This document shows, piece by piece, positions 11,021 to 64,000 of a stretch of DNA of 64,000 nucleotides (positions within the stretch are counted from its first letter, which is position 1; each line of letters begins with the position of its first letter). The position numbers and the translations under genes are program-made. The stretch spans positions 64,001 through 128,000 of the forward strand of contig CAVTHS010000010.1 of the NCBI GenBank assembly GCA_963734535.1, read 5' to 3'. This DNA comes from an uncultured Chloroflexia bacterium (GTDB lineage: Bacteria > Chloroflexota > Limnocylindria > Limnocylindrales > CSP1-4). The notes under the pieces were generated by a model. The model was not told the DNA's origin. It made no database searches and was given only the letters and a program-made list of their open reading frames with translations.

Positions 11021-11509
11021 CTAGGCAGCCCCGACCGTGGAGCCCGGGCGGGCAGGGTCGGGCGCCGGTGCGGAGTCGGCAGCTGCCGCGGCCACCGGCG
11101 GGTCGATGCGGGCAGCCCTCACGGCCGGCGGCGGAGCCGGCATCGCTGCGGACGAGGCGAAGCGCCGGTTGCTCAAGCCCTGCACGTGGATCGACACCGG
11201 GCCGACCTCCCGCGCGAGCGCCCGCTCGAGCCGGTAGCGGACCGCCGAGTCGACCTGCCGCGCGACCTCCGCGACCGGGACGCCGTAGGCGACCGTCAGC
11301 CAGACCTCGGTCGTGACGGTCGGGTGGAGCGTCACGCGGATCGCCCGGCTCCCCAGCCCCAGCCGCACGCGGCAGCGCGCCAGGAGGGTGGGCTCGGCGA
11401 GGCCGGTGACACCGTAGCTGCCCAGCGCAGCGTCGCGCACGATCTCGCTCAGCGCCCGGCGCGCCACGACGGCCCGGCCCGGCACGCCACGTGTCGGCTC
11501 CTCGGGCAT
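11021..11509 (-). CDS. Asp23/Gls24 family protein (YloU-like)
   Basis: AALGSYGVTGL...VAYGVPVAEVARQV...VSIHVQG; directly upstream of the DAK2 gene. Confidence 0.85.
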   Translation of the reverse strand: MPEEPTRGVPGRAVVARRALSEIVRDAALGSYGVTGLAEPTLLARCRVRLGLGSRAIRVTLHPTVTTEVWLTVAYGVPVAEVARQVDSAVRYRLERALAREVGPVSIHVQGLSNRRFASSAAMPAPPPAVRAARIDPPVAAAAADSAPAPDPARPGSTVGAA

Positions 11510-11663
11510 CGGGATCTCCTCGCGATTCGACGGCTGGACGCGGACGATGTGCTAGCATACAGCCTCCCCGGACCCCTTCCGCGGCGGCGCTTCCGCGTGC
11601 CGAGAGGGGCAGATGGGAACGGCGGGCTACCCGCCGACCGAGCACCCTGAACTGAGGAACCTG

Positions 11664-11861
11664 ATGGCCCGGAGCTGCGCGATCTGCGGCAAGGTCTCCA
11701 TGGGCGGCTTCAACCCGCAGTCGAGCGGGATGAACCGCGTCCGTGCGCACCGCCGCTACCAGCCGAACCTGCAGCCGCTCGCCGTCGTCGAAGGCGGCAT
11801 CTCGACCCGCAAGCTCGTCTGCACCCGGTGCCGGCGCACGCAGACCAAGAAGAGCCGCTGA
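11664..11861 (+). CDS. rpmB: 50S ribosomal protein L28
   Basis: MARSCAICGK...RRYQPNLQ...VCTRCRR; divergent from asp23/DAK2; GAGGA upstream. Confidence 0.92.
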   Translation: MARSCAICGKVSMGGFNPQSSGMNRVRAHRRYQPNLQPLAVVEGGISTRKLVCTRCRRTQTKKSR

Positions 11862-12394: not shown

Positions 12395-13390
12395 TCAGGC
12401 CCCGGGATCGGGCCGCGCGTCCCCCGTCGCGGCGAGGATTCGCGCCCGCCACGCAGCGGCCTCCGCGCATGCCGCGTCGCGTGCCTCCGAGAAGTTGTCG
12501 CGCGCCCAGCCCTCCGCGCTCCGCGGGACCAGCAGGTCGTAGTCGCGGACGCCGTCCGGGTTGATCTGCCCGTCGCCGCGCAGCATGAGCACCGGCACGT
12601 CGCGGAGCTCGATCGCGTCGCGGAGGGGACCCGCCAGGTGCTTCGGCAGCTGCGCAAAACGGACCATCTCGTCACGCGGGCGGGGCGGCACGCCGGCGTT
12701 CAGGTCGTTCGCGAACCCTTCGTCGGCCAGCGTCCGAACCAGGCGCACCTCGCGGGCCTGGTCCCGGCCCTTCATGAAGAGCGCCGTCCCCACCACGAGC
12801 ACATCCGCGCCCAGGCCGCCAACCAGCTCGGCGGTCTCGCGGTTCACTCCGCCATCGACGTGGACCTCGCCGCCCCATGGCTTGTGCGAGAGGAGGTCGC
12901 GTGCCGGGAGGATCTTCGCCTTCGCGACGTCGGCCATGAACGCCTGGCCACCGAAGCCCGGCTCCACCGTCATCACCATCACGATGTCGAGGAGCTCCCG
13001 GTAGGGCTCGAGGGCGGCGAGGGGTGTGCCCGGGCGGAGCGCCAGCCCCGCGGCCCGGCCCGCCGCCCGGATCCGTCGAAGGACCGGCTCGATCGGCTCG
13101 GTGATCTCGACGTGGATCGTGATCGAGTCGCAGCCGGCGTCGAGGAACTCGTCGAGCCAGCGGCCCGGCTGGGCGATCATCAGGTGCGCGTCGAAGGGGG
13201 CCTTGGTGACGGGTCGCAGCGCCCGGATGGTACCTGCCCCGAACGTGAGGTTGGGCACGAAGCGGGCATCCATCACGTCCAGGTGGATCCGGTCCGCGCC
13301 GGCCCGGATGACGCGCCGGACCTCGTACGCCAGGTTGCCGAGGTTCGCGTTCAGGATGCTGGCGGCGATGCGGGCGCGGCCGTCGCCCAT
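12395..13390 (-). CDS. rpe: Ribulose-phosphate 3-epimerase with a ~110 aa C-terminal extension
   Basis: IAASIL, HLDVMDARFVPNLTFG, DAHLMI, MTVEPGFGGQAF, VDGGVN. Confidence 0.94.
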   Translation of the reverse strand: MGDGRARIAASILNANLGNLAYEVRRVIRAGADRIHLDVMDARFVPNLTFGAGTIRALRPVTKAPFDAHLMIAQPGRWLDEFLDAGCDSITIHVEITEPIEPVLRRIRAAGRAAGLALRPGTPLAALEPYRELLDIVMVMTVEPGFGGQAFMADVAKAKILPARDLLSHKPWGGEVHVDGGVNRETAELVGGLGADVLVVGTALFMKGRDQAREVRLVRTLADEGFANDLNAGVPPRPRDEMVRFAQLPKHLAGPLRDAIELRDVPVLMLRGDGQINPDGVRDYDLLVPRSAEGWARDNFSEARDAACAEAAAWRARILAATGDARPDPGA

Positions 13391-54888: not shown

Positions 54889-57800
54889 TTACCGCCATCG
54901 CGCCTGGCGAGCCGGCGACCAGCTCACGCCGGGCGTCGGATCCCCGCCGAAGCGGGCGCGAACGGAGATGAGCTTCGACGTGGAGGACCGCCACCAGAAG
55001 TAGACGTTCCCCGAGGCGTCCGCCACGCGGCTCGTGAGCCGTGTGAACGCGCCCCATGTGCCGTTGGTCTTCCTGGTGGCGACCCAGATCTGAACAGTGC
55101 TGCCAGCCTGGCTCGAGCCCCCCGCGAAGCGCCAGGTGACGTACTTGCCCCGCGTCACCACCTTGGTGGTGGAACTGAATGGCCCGACCTTGGTCGCGCC
55201 GGCCGCGGTCGCCGTGGCCGTGGAGGCGGATCCCGCGACGGGCTTGAAGACGAGGCGCCCCTCGATCGCCGGCGACACCGTGCCCTTCGCGGTGACGTAG
55301 TCGATGACCGCGTCCCGCACGTAGTACTGCGTGTCGTTGAGGATCTTGTTGAGCGGCCAGAGGCTCACGCCGTTGTCACTGAAGTTGCACGAGCCGGCCG
55401 CGAGGTAGTTCACGGTCGAGACCCTGTAGAAGGTCGAGGCGTCCGTGAAGTTGACGGCCTTCCCGTTGATCGTCAGCGAGGCGACGTAGCTCCTGGTCGG
55501 GTCGTACGCCGCCGGCGAGACATCGTTGTATGTGATCTTGCCGACCGAGTTCGTGTCGAGCATGCAGGTGGTGTAGTAGGAGTACCCGCCGTAGCCGGGC
55601 ACGTTCTTGTAGTAGTAGTAGTTGCGGTAGCCACGCTCGAGGACCTTCTTGAGCTGCGGGCCGTTCATGCTCAGGACCACGAGCGAGTTCTCGTAGGGCA
55701 TGAGCGAGAACATGTCGGACACCTTGAGGGTGACCGGCGCGTCGGTCGTCGCGGCCGGCGCCACGGCCTTGTTGGTCATCGCGCCGGAGATGTGGACGTC
55801 GACCGAGATGTCGTGCTTGGCCAGCTCGAAGACCGCGGCGTCCGCCTGCAGGTTCGCGGCGTTCGTCTCGGTCGTGAATGCCTGGAGCGCGTCGATCGGG
55901 GCCGTTGTCTTCCCGAGGACGGTGTCGTTGTATGCGTTCAGCTGCGTGGCGTAGGGATCGACGATCGCCTTGATCTCCGGGTCCTCGGGCGTCGTCATCG
56001 TGACGCTGAGGTACTGCCCGGCCCGGCTGACGACCTCGTAGCCGCCGCCCTTCTTCTCGCGCACGCCCAGGACAACCTCGCCGAGCGTGTTGTTGTACCG
56101 GTATGCCTGGTTGATGATCACCGGCGTGTTGCCCGGGCCGGCGACGATCGTGGGCAGGAACTTGTAGGGAGCTTCCGGGTTCGCCGGGTTGGTGTGGCTG
56201 TGGCTCCCGATGATCGCGTCGACGCCGGGGACGTCGGCGGCGAAGTTCGTGTCGACGTTGTTGTCGACCTCGACGCTCTTCGGGTTCGTTGTGAATCCGA
56301 TGTGGGTCAGGGCGATGACCACGTCATCCTTGGCCTTGAGCGTCGGAGCGATGGCCTTGCCGGTGGTGATCGGGTTCGAGAACGTCAGCCCCGGGATGTT
56401 GCTCGGCAGCTCGTAGTTCGGGACGCGGTGGTTCGTGATCCCGAGGATCGCGACCTTGATTCCGCCCAGCGTCGTCTCCAGGTAGGGCTTCACGCCGGCG
56501 CCGCCGTTCGCGGCGGCGAGTCCATACGTCGCCCGAGTCGGCAACGTTGGCGCCGAGGATCGGGAAGGCCGCCTGGCCCAGAACGCCCTTGAAGATGGGG
56601 CTCCCGAAGTTGAACTCATGGTTGCCAAGGGTCATCGCGGTGTACTTCAGCGCGTTCATGACGGCGATCATGGGATTGGTCGTGAGCGCGGCCGGAAGCG
56701 TCGTCCCGTCGCTCGCCTTTCCGCTGAACGATGACTTGAAGTAGTACATCATCGCGTCGCCCTGGATCTGGTCACCCCCGTCCAGGAGGATCGTCCGGGT
56801 CGGATTGTGCAGGCGCTCCTGCTTGATGAGCGTCGCCAGCTGGGTCATCCCGACAAAGGCGCCCTTGGCGAGGTTGCCGTGGGAGTCGTTGTTGTGGAGG
56901 ATCGTGATCGGGAGGATCGAGCCGCTGTCGGGCGTGTCGGATCCATCACGGACGATCCGGCCATCGAGCTTCCCGTTGCCGCTCGGCCCCTTGTACGCCG
57001 TAGCGGGGGTGCCGTACTTCGCCGCAACGTACGCGTCAACCGCATTCAGCATGTCGCCCCAGTACGTAACGTGCGTCATGTACTTGAAGCCGCCGTAGCC
57101 GTCGCCGCCAGCCGGGGCCAGGAACTCGTTCGTGCCGACCTTGTACGTCTTCTTGAGATCGATCGGGTCGCAGGCCTTGGTCGTCTTGTTGACGATGCAG
57201 GAGTCGAAGGCGCCCCAGGCGTAGGGCTGCGGGCCCGGGTTCTTGTCCCGGTACGCGTAGTACGAGAACTTGAGCCCGGCCGGCTGAATGACCCCGTTCG
57301 ACACGAGGGGCGCCTGGTTGAGCACCTCCAGGATCTGCGCCCCGGTCATCTCCCCGACCACGGTCGCGTTGCCGAAGGGCAGGATCGTGAACATGTTCCC
57401 GTAGGTCAACAGCGCCGGCGCGTGGGTGCCGTCGGCGCAGCCCGAGTTCGTCCACGCCGTGCCGCTGTAGCACCAGTCGGTCCGGATGCCGCCCGCGTTG
57501 TTCAGGAACACGTCCACGTCGTTCGCGGCCGTGGCATCCGTGTTGAGGTAGTTGTAGATGGCGTCGTCGACGAACGTGCCCATCATGTTGTCGACGGCGC
57601 CGCCCAGGCGGGGCAGGTCGACGGCGCTGTAACCGATCGGCTTGTTGATCAGCGCCTGGTACGCGGCATCGGAGGCGAAGCCGCTGACCAGCGTGTCGAC
57701 CGTCGGATCCTTGTCACCGGTCGTGAAGCCCGTCGTCCTCGACCAGGCCACCGAGATCGCCCCGGCGGGGCTGACGGTGACGTCCGCGCGGCCGACCGTG

Positions 57801-58675
57801 CGGCCGTTGTAGTACGCCTGCACGACGGCGGTCGAGCCCACCATCGTCGCGGCGGTCAGGTTCGAGTGGCTATGGCCGCCGATGATGAGGTTGACCGGCT
57901 TGCCGGCGGTGTTCAGCTTCGCGGCGAGGGTCTGGTCTCCGTAGACCGGGATGCCGTATCCGTATCCGCCGTCGGCGTATCCGAGATGGCTCAGCACCAC
58001 GATCGCGTCGGCGCCCGCCGACTTCATCGCGTCGTAGTAGTGCAGGATCGAGTCGACCGGGTCCTTGAAGCAAGTGCCCGCGGTCGATGAGGCGATCGTA
58101 ATGGTCGGCGTCTCCTGGGTCGTCACCCCGATGAAGGCGACCTTCACCGTGTTCGGAGCCGTCCCGACCTCCTTGATCACGTAGGGCGCCGACACGAAGG
58201 CCGGCTTGCCCCAGCCCGCGGTCGCGCAGTCCGCGGTGTTCTTGACGACGATGTTGGCCGACACGTGCGGGAACGTCGATTGGGTCACGCGCTGGCCGAG
58301 GACCGTCTGGCCCCAATCGAACTCGTGGTTCCCGAAGGTCGCCACGTCGTAGCCCATCGCGTTGAATGCTGCGATCGTGGGCTTGCCCTGCTGGAGATTC
58401 GAGAGCAGGGAACCCTGCATCTCGTCGCCGGCGTCGACAAGCAGCGTGTTCGCCGCGCCGACGGCCGTCCGAACGTCATTGACGACCTTGGCCACGCGCG
58501 CGATCCCGGGGTTGCTGCCCGACGCTTCGAGCTGGCCGTGGAAGTCGTTCGTGTGGAGGATCGTGAACGTGACCGCGGTCGCCGGCGGGGCCGCGCTGGC
58601 GGCGGCGGGCAGCAGGGACACGAGCATTGCGACCGCCATGAACGGGGCGGCAAGGCGGAAACGACGACTCCGCAC
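54889..58675 (-). CDS. Secreted tandem 5'-nucleotidase / 2',3'-cyclic-nucleotide phosphodiesterase (two modules; frameshift near 56535)
   Basis: GGAGGT SD and signal peptide; module 1 HTNDFHG/DAGD/GNHEFD/GGHSH/NAGGIR/LPFGN; module 2 HNNDSHG/DGGD/GNHEFN/GSHSH/MPYEN. Confidence 0.9.
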
Positions 58676-59149: not shown

Positions 59150-60953
59150 ATGCGCCGCGATTCCCTCTTCCGTCGCGGAACGCCTCGACCGCCTCGCACG
59201 CGACCAGCGGGACGCCGCGACGGCGCCGCCGGGCCCGGTCCTGTGCGTGGCGCCGGCCGGCAGCGGGAAGACCACGACGCTGGTGGCTCGCGTCGCCTGG
59301 CTGGTCGGCGCGGCCGGCGCCGACCCGGCGACCATCGCCGCAATCACCTTCAACACGCGCGCGGCGGAGGAGCTGCGGGCCCGTCTCGACCCGGCGCTCG
59401 CGCCGCTCGGGGTGGCGGCCGGCGCAACGCGCGTGCGCACGTTCCACGCGCTCGGCCTCGAGATCCTTCGCGACGCCGGCGTCCGCCCCGAGCTCCGCGG
59501 ACGAGATTCCATCCTTCGCCGTGCCTGCCCGGACCTGGACGCGGCCGCGCGGCGCGCGCTCGACGGCGCGTTCTCGCGGCTCAAGCTTGACCTTGCGGTC
59601 ACGGCTGCGGACGTCGGTCGCGACCCGGCACCCGGACCGGTCGCCCGGGCGTTCCTCGCATACGAGGCCGCCCTCGCGGAGGCCGGCGCGATCGACTTCG
59701 ACGACCTCGTCGCGCTCGCACTCCGACGTCTCGACGGGGATCCGGCGCTGCTGGCGCGGTGGCGGTCGCGGTGCGTCCACCTGCTCGTCGACGAGGCCCA
59801 GGACGTGGACGCGAGCCAGCTCCGGCTGGCCCTCCTTCTCGCCGCACCGGGGAACCGGATCTTCCTCGTCGGCGACGACGACCAGTCGATCTACGGCTGG
59901 AGACTGGCCGACGTCAGGAGAGTGCTGGGGCTGGCCGGGGCGCTGCCGGGTCTGCGGCGGGTGGACCTCGAGGTCAACTACCGCTGCCCCGCCCCCGTCG
60001 TCACGGCCGCGGTCCGGCTCGTGGAGCACAACGCCGAGCGGTTCGAGAAGCACGTCCGGCCCCGTCCCGGGGCGCCGGGTCGGCTGGTCCTCGCCCCGGC
60101 TGCGACGGCGCGCGACCCGGCGGCTGAGATGCTCATTGCCGCTCGCGCCCTGGACGGCTGGCCGGTCGACGGCGGCTCCCGGGCGATCCTGGCCCGGACG
60201 CGGCGCGAGCTGCTGCCGGCCGCGGCCCTGGCCCTGGCCCGCGGGATCCCGTTCCGGGCCGACGGCGTGACCCTGCTCCTCGAGGACCCGCGGCTGGACG
60301 GAATCCTCGAAGAGGCGGCGAACGCGCCGGGCACGATGCCGCCTCTCCTCCGGCTCGGCGCTGTGGCCACTGCCACGATCGGGCCAGGACGGGTGGCGCT
60401 CGTCGGGGAACCGGACGCTCTCGACTGTCCGAGCGTGCGTCGCGCCGACCGTGACTCGGCCGGCATCGAGCCGCGGGCTCCCGAGCGCCTCGACGGTGAC
60501 GCGGCCGGCCGTCCGCCGACCGATGCCGCGGACCTCGATGAATCCGGGTCGGACGTCCCGCCGATCGCTGACCTGCTCGCGGCCCTCCTCGCCTGGGCCG
60601 CGGCCTACCCCTCGCTGGCTGCGCTCGGGGCGGCGATTGCGGCCGCGCGCTCCCGTCTGGCCGCGCTCCGCGCCGCGGACCCGCTCCTGACGCTCGCCAC
60701 GGCCCACGCGACGAAGGGGCTCGAGTTCGACCACGTGGCAGTGATCGGGATGTCCGAGGGGCGCTTCCCGAGCCCGCGCTCGCTTGCCGAGGGCGGCGAT
60801 CCAACCCGGGCGCTGGAGGAGGAGCGTCGCCTCGCCTACGTGGCGTGGACGCGGGCGCGCCGGACGCTCACCCTCGTCTACGAGCCGGGCTCGCCGTCGC
60901 GGTTCCTGGAGGAGGCGTTCGGGGAAGTGGTCATCGGAGGGAAGACACGCTAA
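59150..60953 (+). CDS. UvrD/Rep (SF1) helicase, compact form (start uncertain)
   Basis: APAGSGKT, ITFN, RTFHALG, DEAQD, GDDDQSIYGWR, NYRC, TAHATKGLEF, EEERRLAYVAWTRAR. Confidence 0.9.
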
Positions 60954-61015: not shown

Positions 61016-61654
61016 CTATGGAGTCTCCCCGGCATCCGACACGGCCGCCGCGCGCATGGCCTTGCCGATGTACCAGGCGAAGATCCCGACGCCCGTCAGG
61101 GCGAAGAGGCCCAGGCTGACCCAGAACAGCGGGCGGGCCACTGCCATGTTCGACGTGCTGACGAGAAGGCTCGGCAGGTTGCCCAGGTTGGCTTGGTCCT
61201 GCGCCTCCATGCCGTAGACCTGGGGGACGATGTAGAGGATCGAGGCGATCACGAGCAGGACGCTCTCGAGGCGGAAGGCCGCCGGATCGTCGTCCGCGTC
61301 GCGGAGGAGCTTGACGGCCAGCGTCCAGAAGAGCACGACGACGGCCAGCGGGGCGGTGATGGGGAGGCCGTCGCCGGTGAGGTAGAGGTTCGGCATCAGG
61401 AAGATCATGCTGAGCCCGAGGGTGACGACCAGCAAGCCGTCGCGGAACAGCACGTAGGACAACCACCAGACGTCGCCACCGAAGCGGAGGGTCAGGCGCC
61501 GCAGGAAGCGGATGATGTATGGGCGGGAGAAATGCAGGATCAGGGTGAACGACCAGAGGATCGGCAGGACGGCGGCCACGGACAGCACCATCCACCCGGC
61601 CCCGCCGGAGGTCAGGGTCGTCGCGAGCTGGTCGGCGTTGAGGGGTGCGTTCAT
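61016..61654 (-). CDS. Unknown ~5-TM membrane protein (paralog B)
   Basis: Hydrophobic helices; LHFSRPY...LTLRFGGDVWWLSYVLFRD; ATGA overlap with the upstream gene. Confidence 0.85.
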   Translation of the reverse strand: MNAPLNADQLATTLTSGGAGWMVLSVAAVLPILWSFTLILHFSRPYIIRFLRRLTLRFGGDVWWLSYVLFRDGLLVVTLGLSMIFLMPNLYLTGDGLPITAPLAVVVLFWTLAVKLLRDADDDPAAFRLESVLLVIASILYIVPQVYGMEAQDQANLGNLPSLLVSTSNMAVARPLFWVSLGLFALTGVGIFAWYIGKAMRAAAVSDAGETP

Positions 61655-62283
61655 CGGTTCGACTCCGGGACTGCCGCCGCGGCGGGCTTCCGCACGTTCG
61701 TCTGGCGCAGGTTGTAGACGGCTGCCACGATCCCGAGGATCCCGACCAAGGCGGCCGAGATGTAGCAAAGCGGGAGCGCGAGGTCAGGGTTCGACGACGA
61801 GACCAGGAGCTTGACGATCCCGGGCAGGTGCGCGCCCGTCAGCTGGGTGCCCTGCACGCCGATGAGGTACGGCCCGATGTAGAGCGTGGCGCCGACGGCC
61901 AGGAGCGCGATCTGCCACTGGTAGCCGCGCCGGTCCCCGTCGCCCTTGGTCATGAGCTTGATCAGGAGCACCGCGAAGGCGCAGACGGCCGCGATGCCGC
62001 CGGTGACGGGGAGGGTCTGGGCTGTCACCACGTCCGGGTAGAAGAAGATGAAGCTGCCCAGGAAGACCTGGACCGTGAAGATGTCGCGGATCGCGACGTA
62101 GATGATCCACCACAGGTCGGCACCCAGGCGGAGCGTGAACTTGCTGGTCGCGGTGGCCATGTACGGTCGTCCGAGGTGCAATGCCAGCACCAGCAGCCAC
62201 AGGACGACGAGGGCGGCACCGATGGTGCCCTCGACGAACGCCTCGCCGGCACTGAACAGACCCGATACCTGGTCGGGCGTCAT
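61651..62283 (-). CDS. Unknown ~5-TM membrane protein (paralog A)
   Basis: LHLGRPY...FTLRLGADLWWIIYVAIRD; AGGAGGT SD; ATGA overlap with the oxidoreductase stop. Confidence 0.85.
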   Translation of the reverse strand: MTPDQVSGLFSAGEAFVEGTIGAALVVLWLLVLALHLGRPYMATATSKFTLRLGADLWWIIYVAIRDIFTVQVFLGSFIFFYPDVVTAQTLPVTGGIAAVCAFAVLLIKLMTKGDGDRRGYQWQIALLAVGATLYIGPYLIGVQGTQLTGAHLPGIVKLLVSSSNPDLALPLCYISAALVGILGIVAAVYNLRQTNVRKPAAAAVPESNR

Positions 62284-64000
62284 TGGAGATCACCTCCTGC
62301 GATCGACTGCGTCGTCGCGGGCGCGAACGACGGGGTTGGGACCGGGTGGATGGCCTCGTGGGGCCCGCGGCCGGTCAGGACCGAGACGCTTGGGCAGCCG
62401 TAGACGGCGTCGCAACGGAAGCAGCGGGACGCCTCCGAGCGGGCGACGTCCTCGGCGAAGCCGGCCTGCGTTGCGGCGAACGTTCCGAGCTGGACCACCG
62501 GGAGCGGCGGGTGCGCGCGCGGCCGGGGCGCGAGGTCGAGCGACAGCGAGCGCTCGGGCCTGGTGGGATAGCGGACCGCGGCCATGATCTCGGCCTCGCC
62601 GTCCGGGGAGCCGGCCAGGTACTCGTGAATCGAAGCCGCTGCGCGCCGTCCGGCTGCGACCGCGTCGATGATCGTCTTGGGCCCGGAGACGACGTCGCCG
62701 CCGGCGAAGATCCCGGCACGGCCGGTGGCGAGCGTGCGGGGGTCGGCCACGATGCCGGCCCAGCCGCTGACCTCGATGCCGGCTCCCTCGGGGAGGATGG
62801 ACGGATCGGGCTCCTCGCCGATCGCGACGAGGATCGTGCTGGCCGGGACCTCCCGGATCGCGCCGGGGACCGCGGCGTAGACGGGGCGGCCGCGCTCGAC
62901 CTGGCCCGTCGGCCGCTGCTCCTGGACGCGAAGCGCCATGACGGCTCCCTCGCGCCCGACAACCTCGGTCGGGGCAAGCCCGGCAAGGATCGTGATCCCC
63001 TCGCGTTCGGCCGCTTCCACCTCCTCTTCCTGGGCCGGCATGTCACCCCGGCCGCGCCGGTAGACGATGCTCACGGAGTCGGCGCCGGAGCGCCACGCGG
63101 AGCGAGCGGCGTCCATGGCCGTGCTGCCGCCGCCGACCACGATGACCGGGCCCGACAGGCGCGGATTCTCGCCGAGGTTGACCTCCTTGAGGAAGCGTGT
63201 CGCCGGGATCACCCCGCGCGCGTCGTCGCCCGGGACTCCGAGCCGCCGGCTCTTCGAGGCGCCGGTCGCCAGGAAGACAGCCTTGAAGCCCTCGCGCTCG
63301 AGGTCGCCGAGCGTGAAGTCGCGGCCCATCGCGGTGTCAAGGCGGAGCTCGACGCCGAGCCCCACGATCCGCTCGATCTCCTCGCGGAGGACGGTCCTGG
63401 GAAGACGGTACTCAGGGATCCCGATCGCCATCATCCCGCCCGGCACCGGCATGGCCTCCATGACCGACACCGAGTACCCGAGGCGAGCGAGGTAGTACGC
63501 GGCGGACATGCCGGCGGGGCCACCGCCGACGATCGCGACGCGCTCCGCCCGCATTGTCGCGGGCCTGGCGACGGCCGGGAGCTTCCCGTGCTCGACCGCG
63601 AAGCGCTTGATGGTCCTGATCGAGATGGGCTCATCCAGCGTCCCGCGCCGGCATGCCGACTCGCACGGCGCCGTGCAGATCCAGCCGCAGACGGACGGGA
63701 ACGGGTTCACCTCCGCGGCCACCGCGTAGGCGTCGTCGTACCGTCCGGCCGCCACGAGCCCGACGTAGCGGCCCGCGTCGGTGCCGGCCGGACACGCCTC
63801 CTGGCACGGCGCGATGGGCGATGCGGGGCCTTCGGTGACCATCGACTGCCACACCTGCCACGGCTCCGGCCGCGAGCGGGTCCGCCAGGTGAAGAGGTCG
63901 CCGAACGGCGAATCGTGAACGGGCTTGAGCGCTTCGCGAGTGACCGCGGAGAGCGGCACCCAGCCGCCTTCGTCGGCGGCCGGCCGCTCGATGGGGCCCT
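62280..64000 (-). CDS. GltD/NfnB-like FAD- and Fe-S-dependent NAD(P)H oxidoreductase (5' end beyond the window)
   Basis: APCQEACP, NPFPSVCGWICTAPCESAC, IVGGGPAG, GIPEYRLP, VGGGSTAMDAAR, YRR, FAGGD, EASRCFRC; frame stays open to position 64000. Confidence 0.92.
   Translation of the reverse strand, partial: GPIERPAADEGGWVPLSAVTREALKPVHDSPFGDLFTWRTRSRPEPWQVWQSMVTEGPASPIAPCQEACPAGTDAGRYVGLVAAGRYDDAYAVAAEVNPFPSVCGWICTAPCESACRRGTLDEPISIRTIKRFAVEHGKLPAVARPATMRAERVAIVGGGPAGMSAAYYLARLGYSVSVMEAMPVPGGMMAIGIPEYRLPRTVLREEIERIVGLGVELRLDTAMGRDFTLGDLEREGFKAVFLATGASKSRRLGVPGDDARGVIPATRFLKEVNLGENPRLSGPVIVVGGGSTAMDAARSAWRSGADSVSIVYRRGRGDMPAQEEEVEAAEREGITILAGLAPTEVVGREGAVMALRVQEQRPTGQVERGRPVYAAVPGAIREVPASTILVAIGEEPDPSILPEGAGIEVSGWAGIVADPRTLATGRAGIFAGGDVVSGPKTIIDAVAAGRRAAASIHEYLAGSPDGEAEIMAAVRYPTRPERSLSLDLAPRPRAHPPLPVVQLGTFAATQAGFAEDVARSEASRCFRCDAVYGCPSVSVLTGRGPHEAIHPVPTPSFAPATTQSIAGGDLQ

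Follow-up and report, generated by a model that had tools for sequence, protein, structure and literature searches.

The right edge of the 64,000-nucleotide stretch of uncultured Chloroflexia DNA analysed here (contig CAVTHS010000010.1, positions 64,001 to 128,000; hereafter the window, with positions counted from its first letter) raises the question of where a flavoprotein sends its electrons. The gene for an iron–sulfur flavoprotein of the NfnB/GltD type (here called G) is followed by two overlapping genes, A and B, that encode small paralogous membrane proteins. Known modules of the GltD/NfnB type feed soluble partners such as glutamate synthase, Nfn, Stn, and dihydropyrimidine dehydrogenase. 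The answer that we tentatively prefer, with less than even confidence, is that G, A, and B form a self-contained, regulated, membrane-anchored oxidoreductase for reduced nicotinamide adenine dinucleotide phosphate (NADPH), in which A and B provide a cofactor-less anchor and an acceptor site, the acceptor most likely being a quinone. If this is true, a GltD/NfnB-type module wired to two dedicated membrane proteins represents a new connection between the NADPH pool and the membrane, and the pair defines a new membrane-protein family, apparently of a new fold, in the poorly studied Limnocylindria-type Chloroflexota. The cassette is compact, with three structural genes besides the genes for a sensor kinase and a regulator, and no description of the G-A-B trio was found in the literature that is accessible without subscription.

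The three genes are tied to one another by conservation. A scan of GTDB species genomes yielded 247 confirmed loci, and all counts of gene context refer to the best 80 of these 247 (L001–L080), where neighbours were assigned by tblastn with five reference proteins and the start of B was chosen heuristically. In all 80 loci, G immediately precedes A and B immediately follows it on one strand, a statistic that describes conservation within one class and not independent recurrences, as the loci are close kin with A identities of 59–97%. Nearly all of them come from metagenome-assembled genomes of the Limnocylindria type, three being labelled Acidobacteriota, Anaerolineaceae, and Sulfotelmatobacter, and the operon is kept in this soil and freshwater lineage of Chloroflexota. 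The 4-nt overlap between G and A is retained in 60 of 68 evaluable loci, while the junction of A and B, evaluable in 55 loci, is a 4-nt overlap in 22 and a gap of 3–16 nt in 24. A preliminary description of the locus, made from the window sequence, had proposed that a GltD-like flavoprotein works together with a new pair of paralogous membrane proteins, and this core idea is well supported by conservation. The ribosome-binding site of A also leaves a trace in the protein G, whose last residues (window 62283–62300, minus strand) form a C-terminal tail that varies everywhere but at a Gly-Gly pair, which is encoded by the AGGAGG Shine–Dalgarno sequence of A; the conserved Gly-Gly is a case of protein conservation imposed by a translation signal.

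The conserved unit extends upstream of G. Of the 70 loci whose flank reaches 4.6 kb or more, 67 have genes there, in the same orientation, for a histidine kinase and a response regulator of the NarL/LuxR type; the exceptions are L040, which lies in a broken assembly region, L068, in which a similar pair is found downstream on the other strand, and L075, which has none nearby. Depending on the locus, the genes for a DUF6941 protein of about 140 residues and for an open reading frame (ORF) of about 107 residues are found either before or after the cassette (L001 3854–4273; L014 11398–11841), and because the position of DUF6941 varies, the five genes (kinase, regulator, G, A, and B) behave as a block that moves as a whole. 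Genes for hydrogenase, formate dehydrogenase, or Nuo/Hyf/Mbx-like subunits were not seen near the eight loci scanned for them (L001, L003, L012, L014, L033, L056, L068, and L075).

G is truncated in the window. Its frame is open to base 63998 and continues beyond the right edge, and residue 1 of the window fragment corresponds to residue 91 of a 662-residue orthologue in L001 (7260–9248), a locus whose A protein is 97% identical. The GTG at 63959, which had been implied as the gene start, is not the start of G, because the frame is open and the L001 orthologue extends about 90 codons further. Judged from that orthologue, the 90 or so N-terminal codons beyond the edge encode a 2x[4Fe–4S] ferredoxin domain, and Pfam recognizes an N-terminal Fer4 dicluster domain in full-length G orthologues. 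The part of G within the window matches Fer4_20 with 67.4 bits (Pfam cut-off 25.8) and Pyr_redox_2 with 126.4 bits (cut-off 26.1), and contains two Rossmann motifs, GGGPAG and GGGSTAMD. For a survey of cysteines, 66 of the 80 loci gave a tblastn match across nearly the whole window fragment and an ORF was definable in 65; 17 cysteine positions are conserved in these 65 aligned orthologues, of which eight belong to the ferredoxin domain, six to Fer4_20, and three to a C-terminal CxxCx5C tail (C616 and C619 in 65/65, C625 in 61/65); the nine of Fer4_20 and the tail are each present in 61–65 of the 65. The Fer4_20 match begins only at profile position 30, and the first cysteine motif missing from it resembles the C-terminal ‘EAxRCxxC’, so the tail would complete one of the two GltD-type clusters and bring G to a probable total of four [4Fe–4S] clusters.

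By sequence, G resembles proteins of solved structure that have a GltD domain. Residues ~150–621 align to the GltD domain of the solved NfnA (9n5u_A, E 9e-101), to a ‘molybdopterin oxidoreductase’ (9bov_A, E 1e-99), to StnC (8oh5_C, E 2e-90), and to NfnB (4ylf_B, E 6e-76), whereas true GltD aligns more weakly (1e-54). G falls below all NCBIfam cut-offs, the best model being NF009410 (PRK12771) with 458 bits for the window fragment and 471 bits for the full-length L001 protein against a cut-off of 516, and it falls well short of the glutamate synthase small subunit models TIGR01317 (180 against 447.7 bits) and TIGR01318 (233 against 483 bits). The name PRK12771 turned up in one preprint, on an unrelated subject. 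Pairing with GltB is not seen in any of the 80 loci, where G is flanked upstream by a response regulator gene or intergenic DNA and downstream by gene A. Judged by its sequence, G is a member of the kind of modules that take in electrons from NAD(P)H, and not a glutamate synthase subunit. The residues ‘VYRR’ after its second Rossmann strand, which we take to be a sign of NADPH preference, suggest that NADPH rather than NADH would be the donor.

The membrane proteins A and B are related to each other and to nothing that has been named. They share 35% identity across 148 residues in BLASTP (E 4e-26), and the shared motifs listed in the preliminary description occur in both. Its account of two paralogous proteins of about 210 residues, with about five transmembrane (TM) segments and outside any named family, is upheld. 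Neither protein matches a Pfam or NCBIfam model at E<=0.1; a Pfam scan of 40 diverse family members at E<=1 gave no recurring family (at most 4 of the 40, with an irrelevant model); and the family profile retrieved nothing from PDB sequences at E<=10. Confident AlphaFold2 models of A (predicted local distance difference test, pLDDT, 93.7; predicted template-modelling score, pTM, 0.86) and of B (pLDDT 83.2, pTM 0.77) each consist of five long helices and short connecting helices. Foldseek found no PDB match to either model at E<=1e-3 (best E 0.19 for A and 0.23 for B), and the rows below threshold, with template-modelling scores of at most 0.40, are a mix of G-protein-coupled receptors and designed bundles. 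In a language-model protein atlas, A falls among unnamed Chloroflexota clusters only, the nearest named ones being DUF5692 and AF_1499 at 0.76, a level often reached by chance. On these searches and models, A and B appear to constitute an undescribed membrane family with an apparently new fold. The family is real, well populated, and phylogenetically narrow: A has 2172 matches at E<=1e-3 among 8000 scored candidates from a set of 5.8 billion proteins, the named ones all being ‘hypothetical protein’ of Chloroflexota or Limnocylindrales; a profile search of 1.84 billion representatives gave 262 clusters at E<=1e-3; and a search with P0210, a distant member of low GC content, found just 48 relatives, of which the few with names are from Chloroflexota, Ktedonobacterales included. 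Thousands of sequences belong to the family, nearly all from Limnocylindria-type Chloroflexota, and the genomes considered here all come from uncultured samples.

Two apparent leads on the nature of A and B were set aside. NOX and ferric-reductase TM domains hold two bis-His heme sites in the membrane, and a weak Foldseek row for B alone pointed to the Streptococcus pneumoniae NADPH oxidase (8qta/8qt6, E ~1, TMq 0.40, prob 0.6); A gave no such row, and the family has no conserved histidine. The ‘fused’ G-A or A-B proteins P0128, P0184, P0195, and P0124 are frameshifted translations with long out-of-frame stretches rich in Arg and Pro. The frameshifts probably stem from indel-prone assemblies, and they would mislead an analysis of domain fusions.

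The topology of A and B was predicted from hydropathy and the positive-inside rule, with 29 sequences of A and 28 of B. Both are predicted to span the membrane five times with the N-terminus outside and the C-terminus inside, the counts of Lys and Arg in A being 0 for the N-terminus, 3.7 for loop 1–2, 0.4 for loop 2–3, 2.4 for loop 3–4, 0.8 for loop 4–5, and 3.2 for the C-terminus, and an outer N-terminus also agrees with those relatives in which a signal peptide precedes the first TM segment. As the topology is the same in both, the pair is parallel and not inverted. The family signature, present in A and in B, is a five-TM core of about 200 residues with R-P-Y, [KR]-[FL]-[TS]-L-R-x-[GA]-A-D-x-W-W, and R-D in TM2. 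Across 40 diverse members, two residues never vary, D56 and R66 (numbered as in A), and at least 90% of the members share R39, Y41, L51, R52, A55, W58, W59, D67, P83, L110, D115, and L127; the histidine of ‘LHxxRPY’ is not conserved across the family. The conserved residues concentrate in two places, the predicted cytoplasmic face and the inner half of TM2. No cysteine or histidine is found in the invariant columns, or in those conserved to at least 90%, of the 29 A or the 28 B sequences, and B of the window has no cysteine and a single histidine. The lack of conserved Cys and His excludes a heme or an Fe–S cluster in the membrane part of A/B, and since A and B cannot bind either cofactor, electron transfer across the membrane is unlikely.

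A route for the electrons can be proposed from these features. GltD-type modules do not act alone but depend on a partner protein for the acceptor site, and A and B are the only conserved candidates for this partner; they are translationally coupled to G, and their most conserved charged and aromatic residues are predicted to face G’s side of the membrane. In the cytoplasm, G would accept a hydride from NAD(P)H on flavin adenine dinucleotide (FAD), from which single electrons would pass to the two GltD-type [4Fe–4S] clusters, one of them apparently completed by the CxxCx5C tail, and then to the two [4Fe–4S] clusters of the N-terminal ferredoxin domain. The parallel five-TM paralogues, lacking heme and Fe–S clusters, would serve as a cofactor-less anchor, whose cytoplasmic-face patch (RPY, RLGADLWW, RD in TM2, K109, and D115/D117) may dock G and form the exit site through which the electrons leave for a membrane acceptor, most likely menaquinone. 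The operon would probably be switched on by the adjacent two-TM GAF–HisKA_3 kinase and the NarL-type regulator. We infer the association of G with A/B, the A–B heterodimer, the quinone acceptor, the preference for NADPH, and the two-component control. The strict co-occurrence of both paralogues makes the heterodimer plausible, and a prediction of the A+B complex, scoring 0.14 and 0.18 (alignments A4 and A3) against a mark of 0.32, speaks neither for nor against it.

Comparison with known systems shows which parts of this arrangement are familiar. The GltD domain of StnC (residues 102–565) binds FAD, NADPH, and two [4Fe–4S] clusters and serves solely as an NADPH electron-input module (PMC10482914). 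G shares with the GltD domains of NfnB/NfnL, StnC, and NfnA(Bfu) the Fer4_20 and Pyr_redox_2 domains and the two GGG Rossmann motifs, and its conserved cysteines are presumably cluster ligands as in these, but it lacks an NfnA/NfnS partner and a NuoG/FdhF-like domain, has its own N-terminal 2x[4Fe–4S] ferredoxin domain, and is always followed by two membrane-protein genes. For A and B, hemeless E. coli FrdC/FrdD offer a parallel in working principle only, as two small related cofactor-less membrane subunits that tether a flavoprotein/Fe–S chain and supply a quinone site. They have three TM helices each, whereas A and B have five, and the donor here is NAD(P)H and not succinate/fumarate. Searches for complex II anchors (SdhC/D, FrdC/D) and NrfD-like proteins found no similarity to A/B in sequence or fold by Pfam, by the profile against PDB sequences (E<=10), or by Foldseek (E<=1e-3). 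NrfD/PsrC-like proteins are cofactor-less integral membrane subunits that link peripheral Fe–S subunits to the quinone pool (PMC8076601). The likeness is again one of function only, without a Pfam match, and the partners of NrfD/PsrC are periplasmic or cytoplasmic four-cluster proteins of another family than G. NrfD proteins are also larger, with eight or more TM segments. RnfA/RnfE and NqrD/NqrE, to which the pair had been likened at the outset, resemble A and B in that they, too, are small paralogous membrane proteins, encoded side by side, of a system linked to NAD(P)H. They have six TM segments, inverted topology, and conserved cysteines, in contrast to A and B, which have five segments, are parallel, and possess neither a conserved histidine nor the conserved cysteines for an intramembrane cluster, nor any match to the Rnf-Nqr Pfam model; the analogy is not supported.

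Several observations weigh against an NADPH:quinone oxidoreductase working at the cytoplasmic face. The quinone is an argument by elimination, with no quinone-site motif known for the A/B family, and the binding of G to A/B and of A to B is likewise something that we infer; the score of G below the PRK12771 cut-off leaves its subfamily undefined. The acidic residues E14, E18, and D84 at the outer face of A, in its N-terminal segment and a loop, are invariant, which such an enzyme leaves unexplained, and the family-invariant R66 and near-invariant D67 lie within TM2, where an Arg–Asp pair suggests the handling of ions or a substrate rather than simple anchoring. Relatives of A carry extracytoplasmic parts as well. 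In P0135, P0137, and P0143, which are 41–44% identical to A, and in P0284, a signal peptide is followed directly by a histidine and an immunoglobulin-like ectodomain, and P0158, P0163, P0146, and P0170 have long extracytoplasmic tails rich in His, Asp, and Glu. These tails and His-first ectodomains hint at extracytoplasmic metal binding, and they are not accounted for by an enzyme that only reduces quinone at the cytoplasmic face. The ectodomains have no significant match, the best being NPCBM_assoc at E 0.0033 in one protein and, for P0137 against PDB sequences, E 0.2. A resemblance of the His-first N-terminus of P0137 to copper-binding domains found no support.

The same features are the strength of the alternative that survives best, namely, that A and B let a cation or another small solute, possibly a metal such as copper or iron, through the membrane as a transporter or channel, and that G reduces the imported species in the cytoplasm, for uptake or for detoxification, with no electrons entering the membrane. 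The outer-face acids, the Arg–Asp pair in TM2, the His-first ectodomains, and the outer tails, if these do bind metal, would all find a place in it. On the other hand, A and B match no transporter family in Pfam or NCBIfam and no transporter fold in the Foldseek search of the PDB, the proteins of the window have no ectodomains, those of the relatives lack a significant Pfam or PDB sequence match, and GltD-type modules usually pass electrons to a protein-bound site and not to free ions. We regard a transport-coupled reductase as rather unlikely, though it deserves serious consideration.

A bolder form of the membrane-anchored oxidoreductase would give the Arg–Asp pair a role of its own. G-A-B would then be an unrecognized enzyme of the respiratory type, an NADPH:quinone oxidoreductase that combines an NfnB-like four-cluster flavoprotein with a heterodimer of a new five-TM fold, in which the pair in TM2 couples electron transfer to ion movement, or in which the NfnB-type FAD bifurcates electrons to quinone through A/B and to a low-potential acceptor through the ferredoxin domain. 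We hold this elaborate version to be unlikely.

The neighbouring two-component genes open another possibility, in which A and B assist the neighbouring kinase, which is of the intramembrane type, as accessory membrane proteins, G perhaps supplies an NADPH or redox signal, and the whole is a sensor of redox or envelope state rather than a catalytic enzyme of respiration. The kinase consists of two N-terminal TM segments separated by a loop of about 14 residues, followed by GAF, HisKA_3, and HATPase_c domains, and the regulator of Response_reg and GerE, all of these domains being above the Pfam cut-offs in L001, L003, and L068. The best NCBIfam models are NarQ/NarX/MctS for the kinase and NarL/MadR for the regulator, all far below the equivalog cut-offs, and the PDB matches of the kinase include the catalytic domains of DesK, VraS, DosT, and DevS. 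The pair thus shares its domain composition with NarL/NarX-type systems, including GAF-containing DevS/DosT-like kinases, and differs in having a single GAF domain and the two N-terminal TM segments with their short loop. A kinase of this build has no extracytoplasmic sensor domain of its own, and HisKA_3 kinases like it often rely on membrane accessory proteins, as LiaF serves LiaS and BceAB serves BceS; the pair adjoins the operon in 67 of 70 loci and, rearranged, does so again in L068. However, a 662-residue flavoprotein with four clusters would be a costly sensor, two-component systems usually regulate the neighbouring operon, and L075 has G-A-B with no kinase or regulator nearby. A regulated promoter is also what fits the conserved GC-rich tandem repeat GAATGGCCCGG-GCCGGATGGCCC, which is fixed in position about 116–127 nt upstream of the start of G (beyond the window edge; L001–L080). 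Of the 55 intergenic regions between the regulator gene and G, 23 have it at −127 to −118, against an average of 0.17 and at most 2 in mononucleotide shuffles, with the pattern having been defined after the data were seen and the loci being related, and it is a candidate site for the NarL-type regulator. A signalling role for A and B is, on balance, improbable.

We consider it equally improbable that A and B are merely co-transcribed with G, which would then be a soluble NADPH:ferredoxin-type oxidoreductase unrelated to them in function. The binding of G to A/B is a supposition, and with a ferredoxin domain of its own, G could reduce a soluble acceptor. Against this independence stand the adjacency of the three genes in all 80 loci, across the whole range of A identity, the conserved stop/start overlaps, and the movement of the cassette as a unit relative to DUF6941 and uvrA. 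The least probable of all, and in our view hardly credible, is the larger ion-pumping NAD(P)H complex of the preliminary description, in which A and B would be an RnfA/E- or NqrD/E-like conduit and further subunits (Nuo/Hyf/Mbx-like, hydrogenase, or formate dehydrogenase) would lie beyond the right edge, for although paralogous membrane pairs recur in Rnf/Nqr and GltD-like modules serve hydrogenase- and formate dehydrogenase-type partners (StnC and 9bov_A being GltD fused to NuoG/FdhF-like domains), what relatives encode beyond that edge is the ferredoxin domain of G, the response regulator, and the kinase (67/70), then unrelated variable genes, mostly of DNA repair, and A, B, and the 40 family members show no Rnf-Nqr Pfam match at E<=1, quite apart from the five TM segments, the parallel topology, and the lack of conserved cysteines in A and B.

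The features of the operon within the window are collected in Table 1.

Table 1. Genes and signals of the G-A-B operon (positions in the window)
Feature	Position	Strand	Description
Gene G (3' part, 572 codons and stop)	62280..64000	−	NfnB/GltD-type Fe–S flavoprotein; frame runs past the window edge
Gene A	61651..62283	−	Membrane protein of 210 residues, five predicted TM segments, N-out/C-in; family without a name
Gene B	61016..61654	−	Paralogue of A, 212 residues, same predicted five-TM topology
ATGA overlap, G stop/A start	62280..62283	−	Read directly from the sequence; translational coupling
ATGA overlap, A stop/B start	61651..61654	−	Read directly from the sequence
AGGAGG Shine–Dalgarno sequence of A	62293..62298	−	9 nt ahead of the ATG of A, within the last codons of G
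Hairpin, perfect 13-bp GC-rich stem, 5-nt loop	60954..60984		Between the convergent ends of B and the helicase gene

The chaining of the three genes by ATGA overlaps and the strong hairpin at the end of the operon, both noted earlier, stand as described. The arms of the hairpin stem are GGGAGGCGGCGCC and GGCGCCGCCTCCC; it begins 32 nt beyond the stop codon of B and adjoins the stop codon of a convergent gene for a UvrD-like helicase (59202–60953, plus strand). The 81-nt hairpin region folds at −48 kcal/mol (z = −4.6), a value equalled by none of 200 shuffles. No run of T follows the hairpin, and a scan for consensus terminators gave no sites; the hairpin is likely a bidirectional terminator without a T-tract, or a stabilizer of the RNA end.

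The outer flanks of the cassette differ by subclade, with UvrA, DUF6941, and a UvrD-like helicase in one arrangement (as in the window), Lhr and an Fpg/Nei glycosylase in another, and pyrimidine synthesis genes or NUDIX and an AlkZ-like glycosylase in others. Genes of DNA repair recur around it, comprising a UvrB/C-motif protein, UvrA, the UvrD-like helicase, Lhr, Fpg/Nei, NUDIX, and the AlkZ-like glycosylase (window 59202–60953, plus strand; L001 109–3771; L033 52–5520; L075 7558–8067 and 11310–12617), and these surroundings could reflect either the synteny of the lineage or a link to oxidative stress. In one subclade (14 of the 80 loci), B is followed directly, in the same orientation, by an ORF of about 93 residues without a Pfam match, of which L033 has two copies (11383–11664 and 12671–12952) and which may be an extra, subclade-specific component. 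Left of the helicase gene, the window encodes a large secreted-looking 5'-nucleotidase/metallophosphoesterase (56324–58600, minus strand; Metallophos and 5_nucleotid_C), which, judged from the ORF text, appears to hold two such units.

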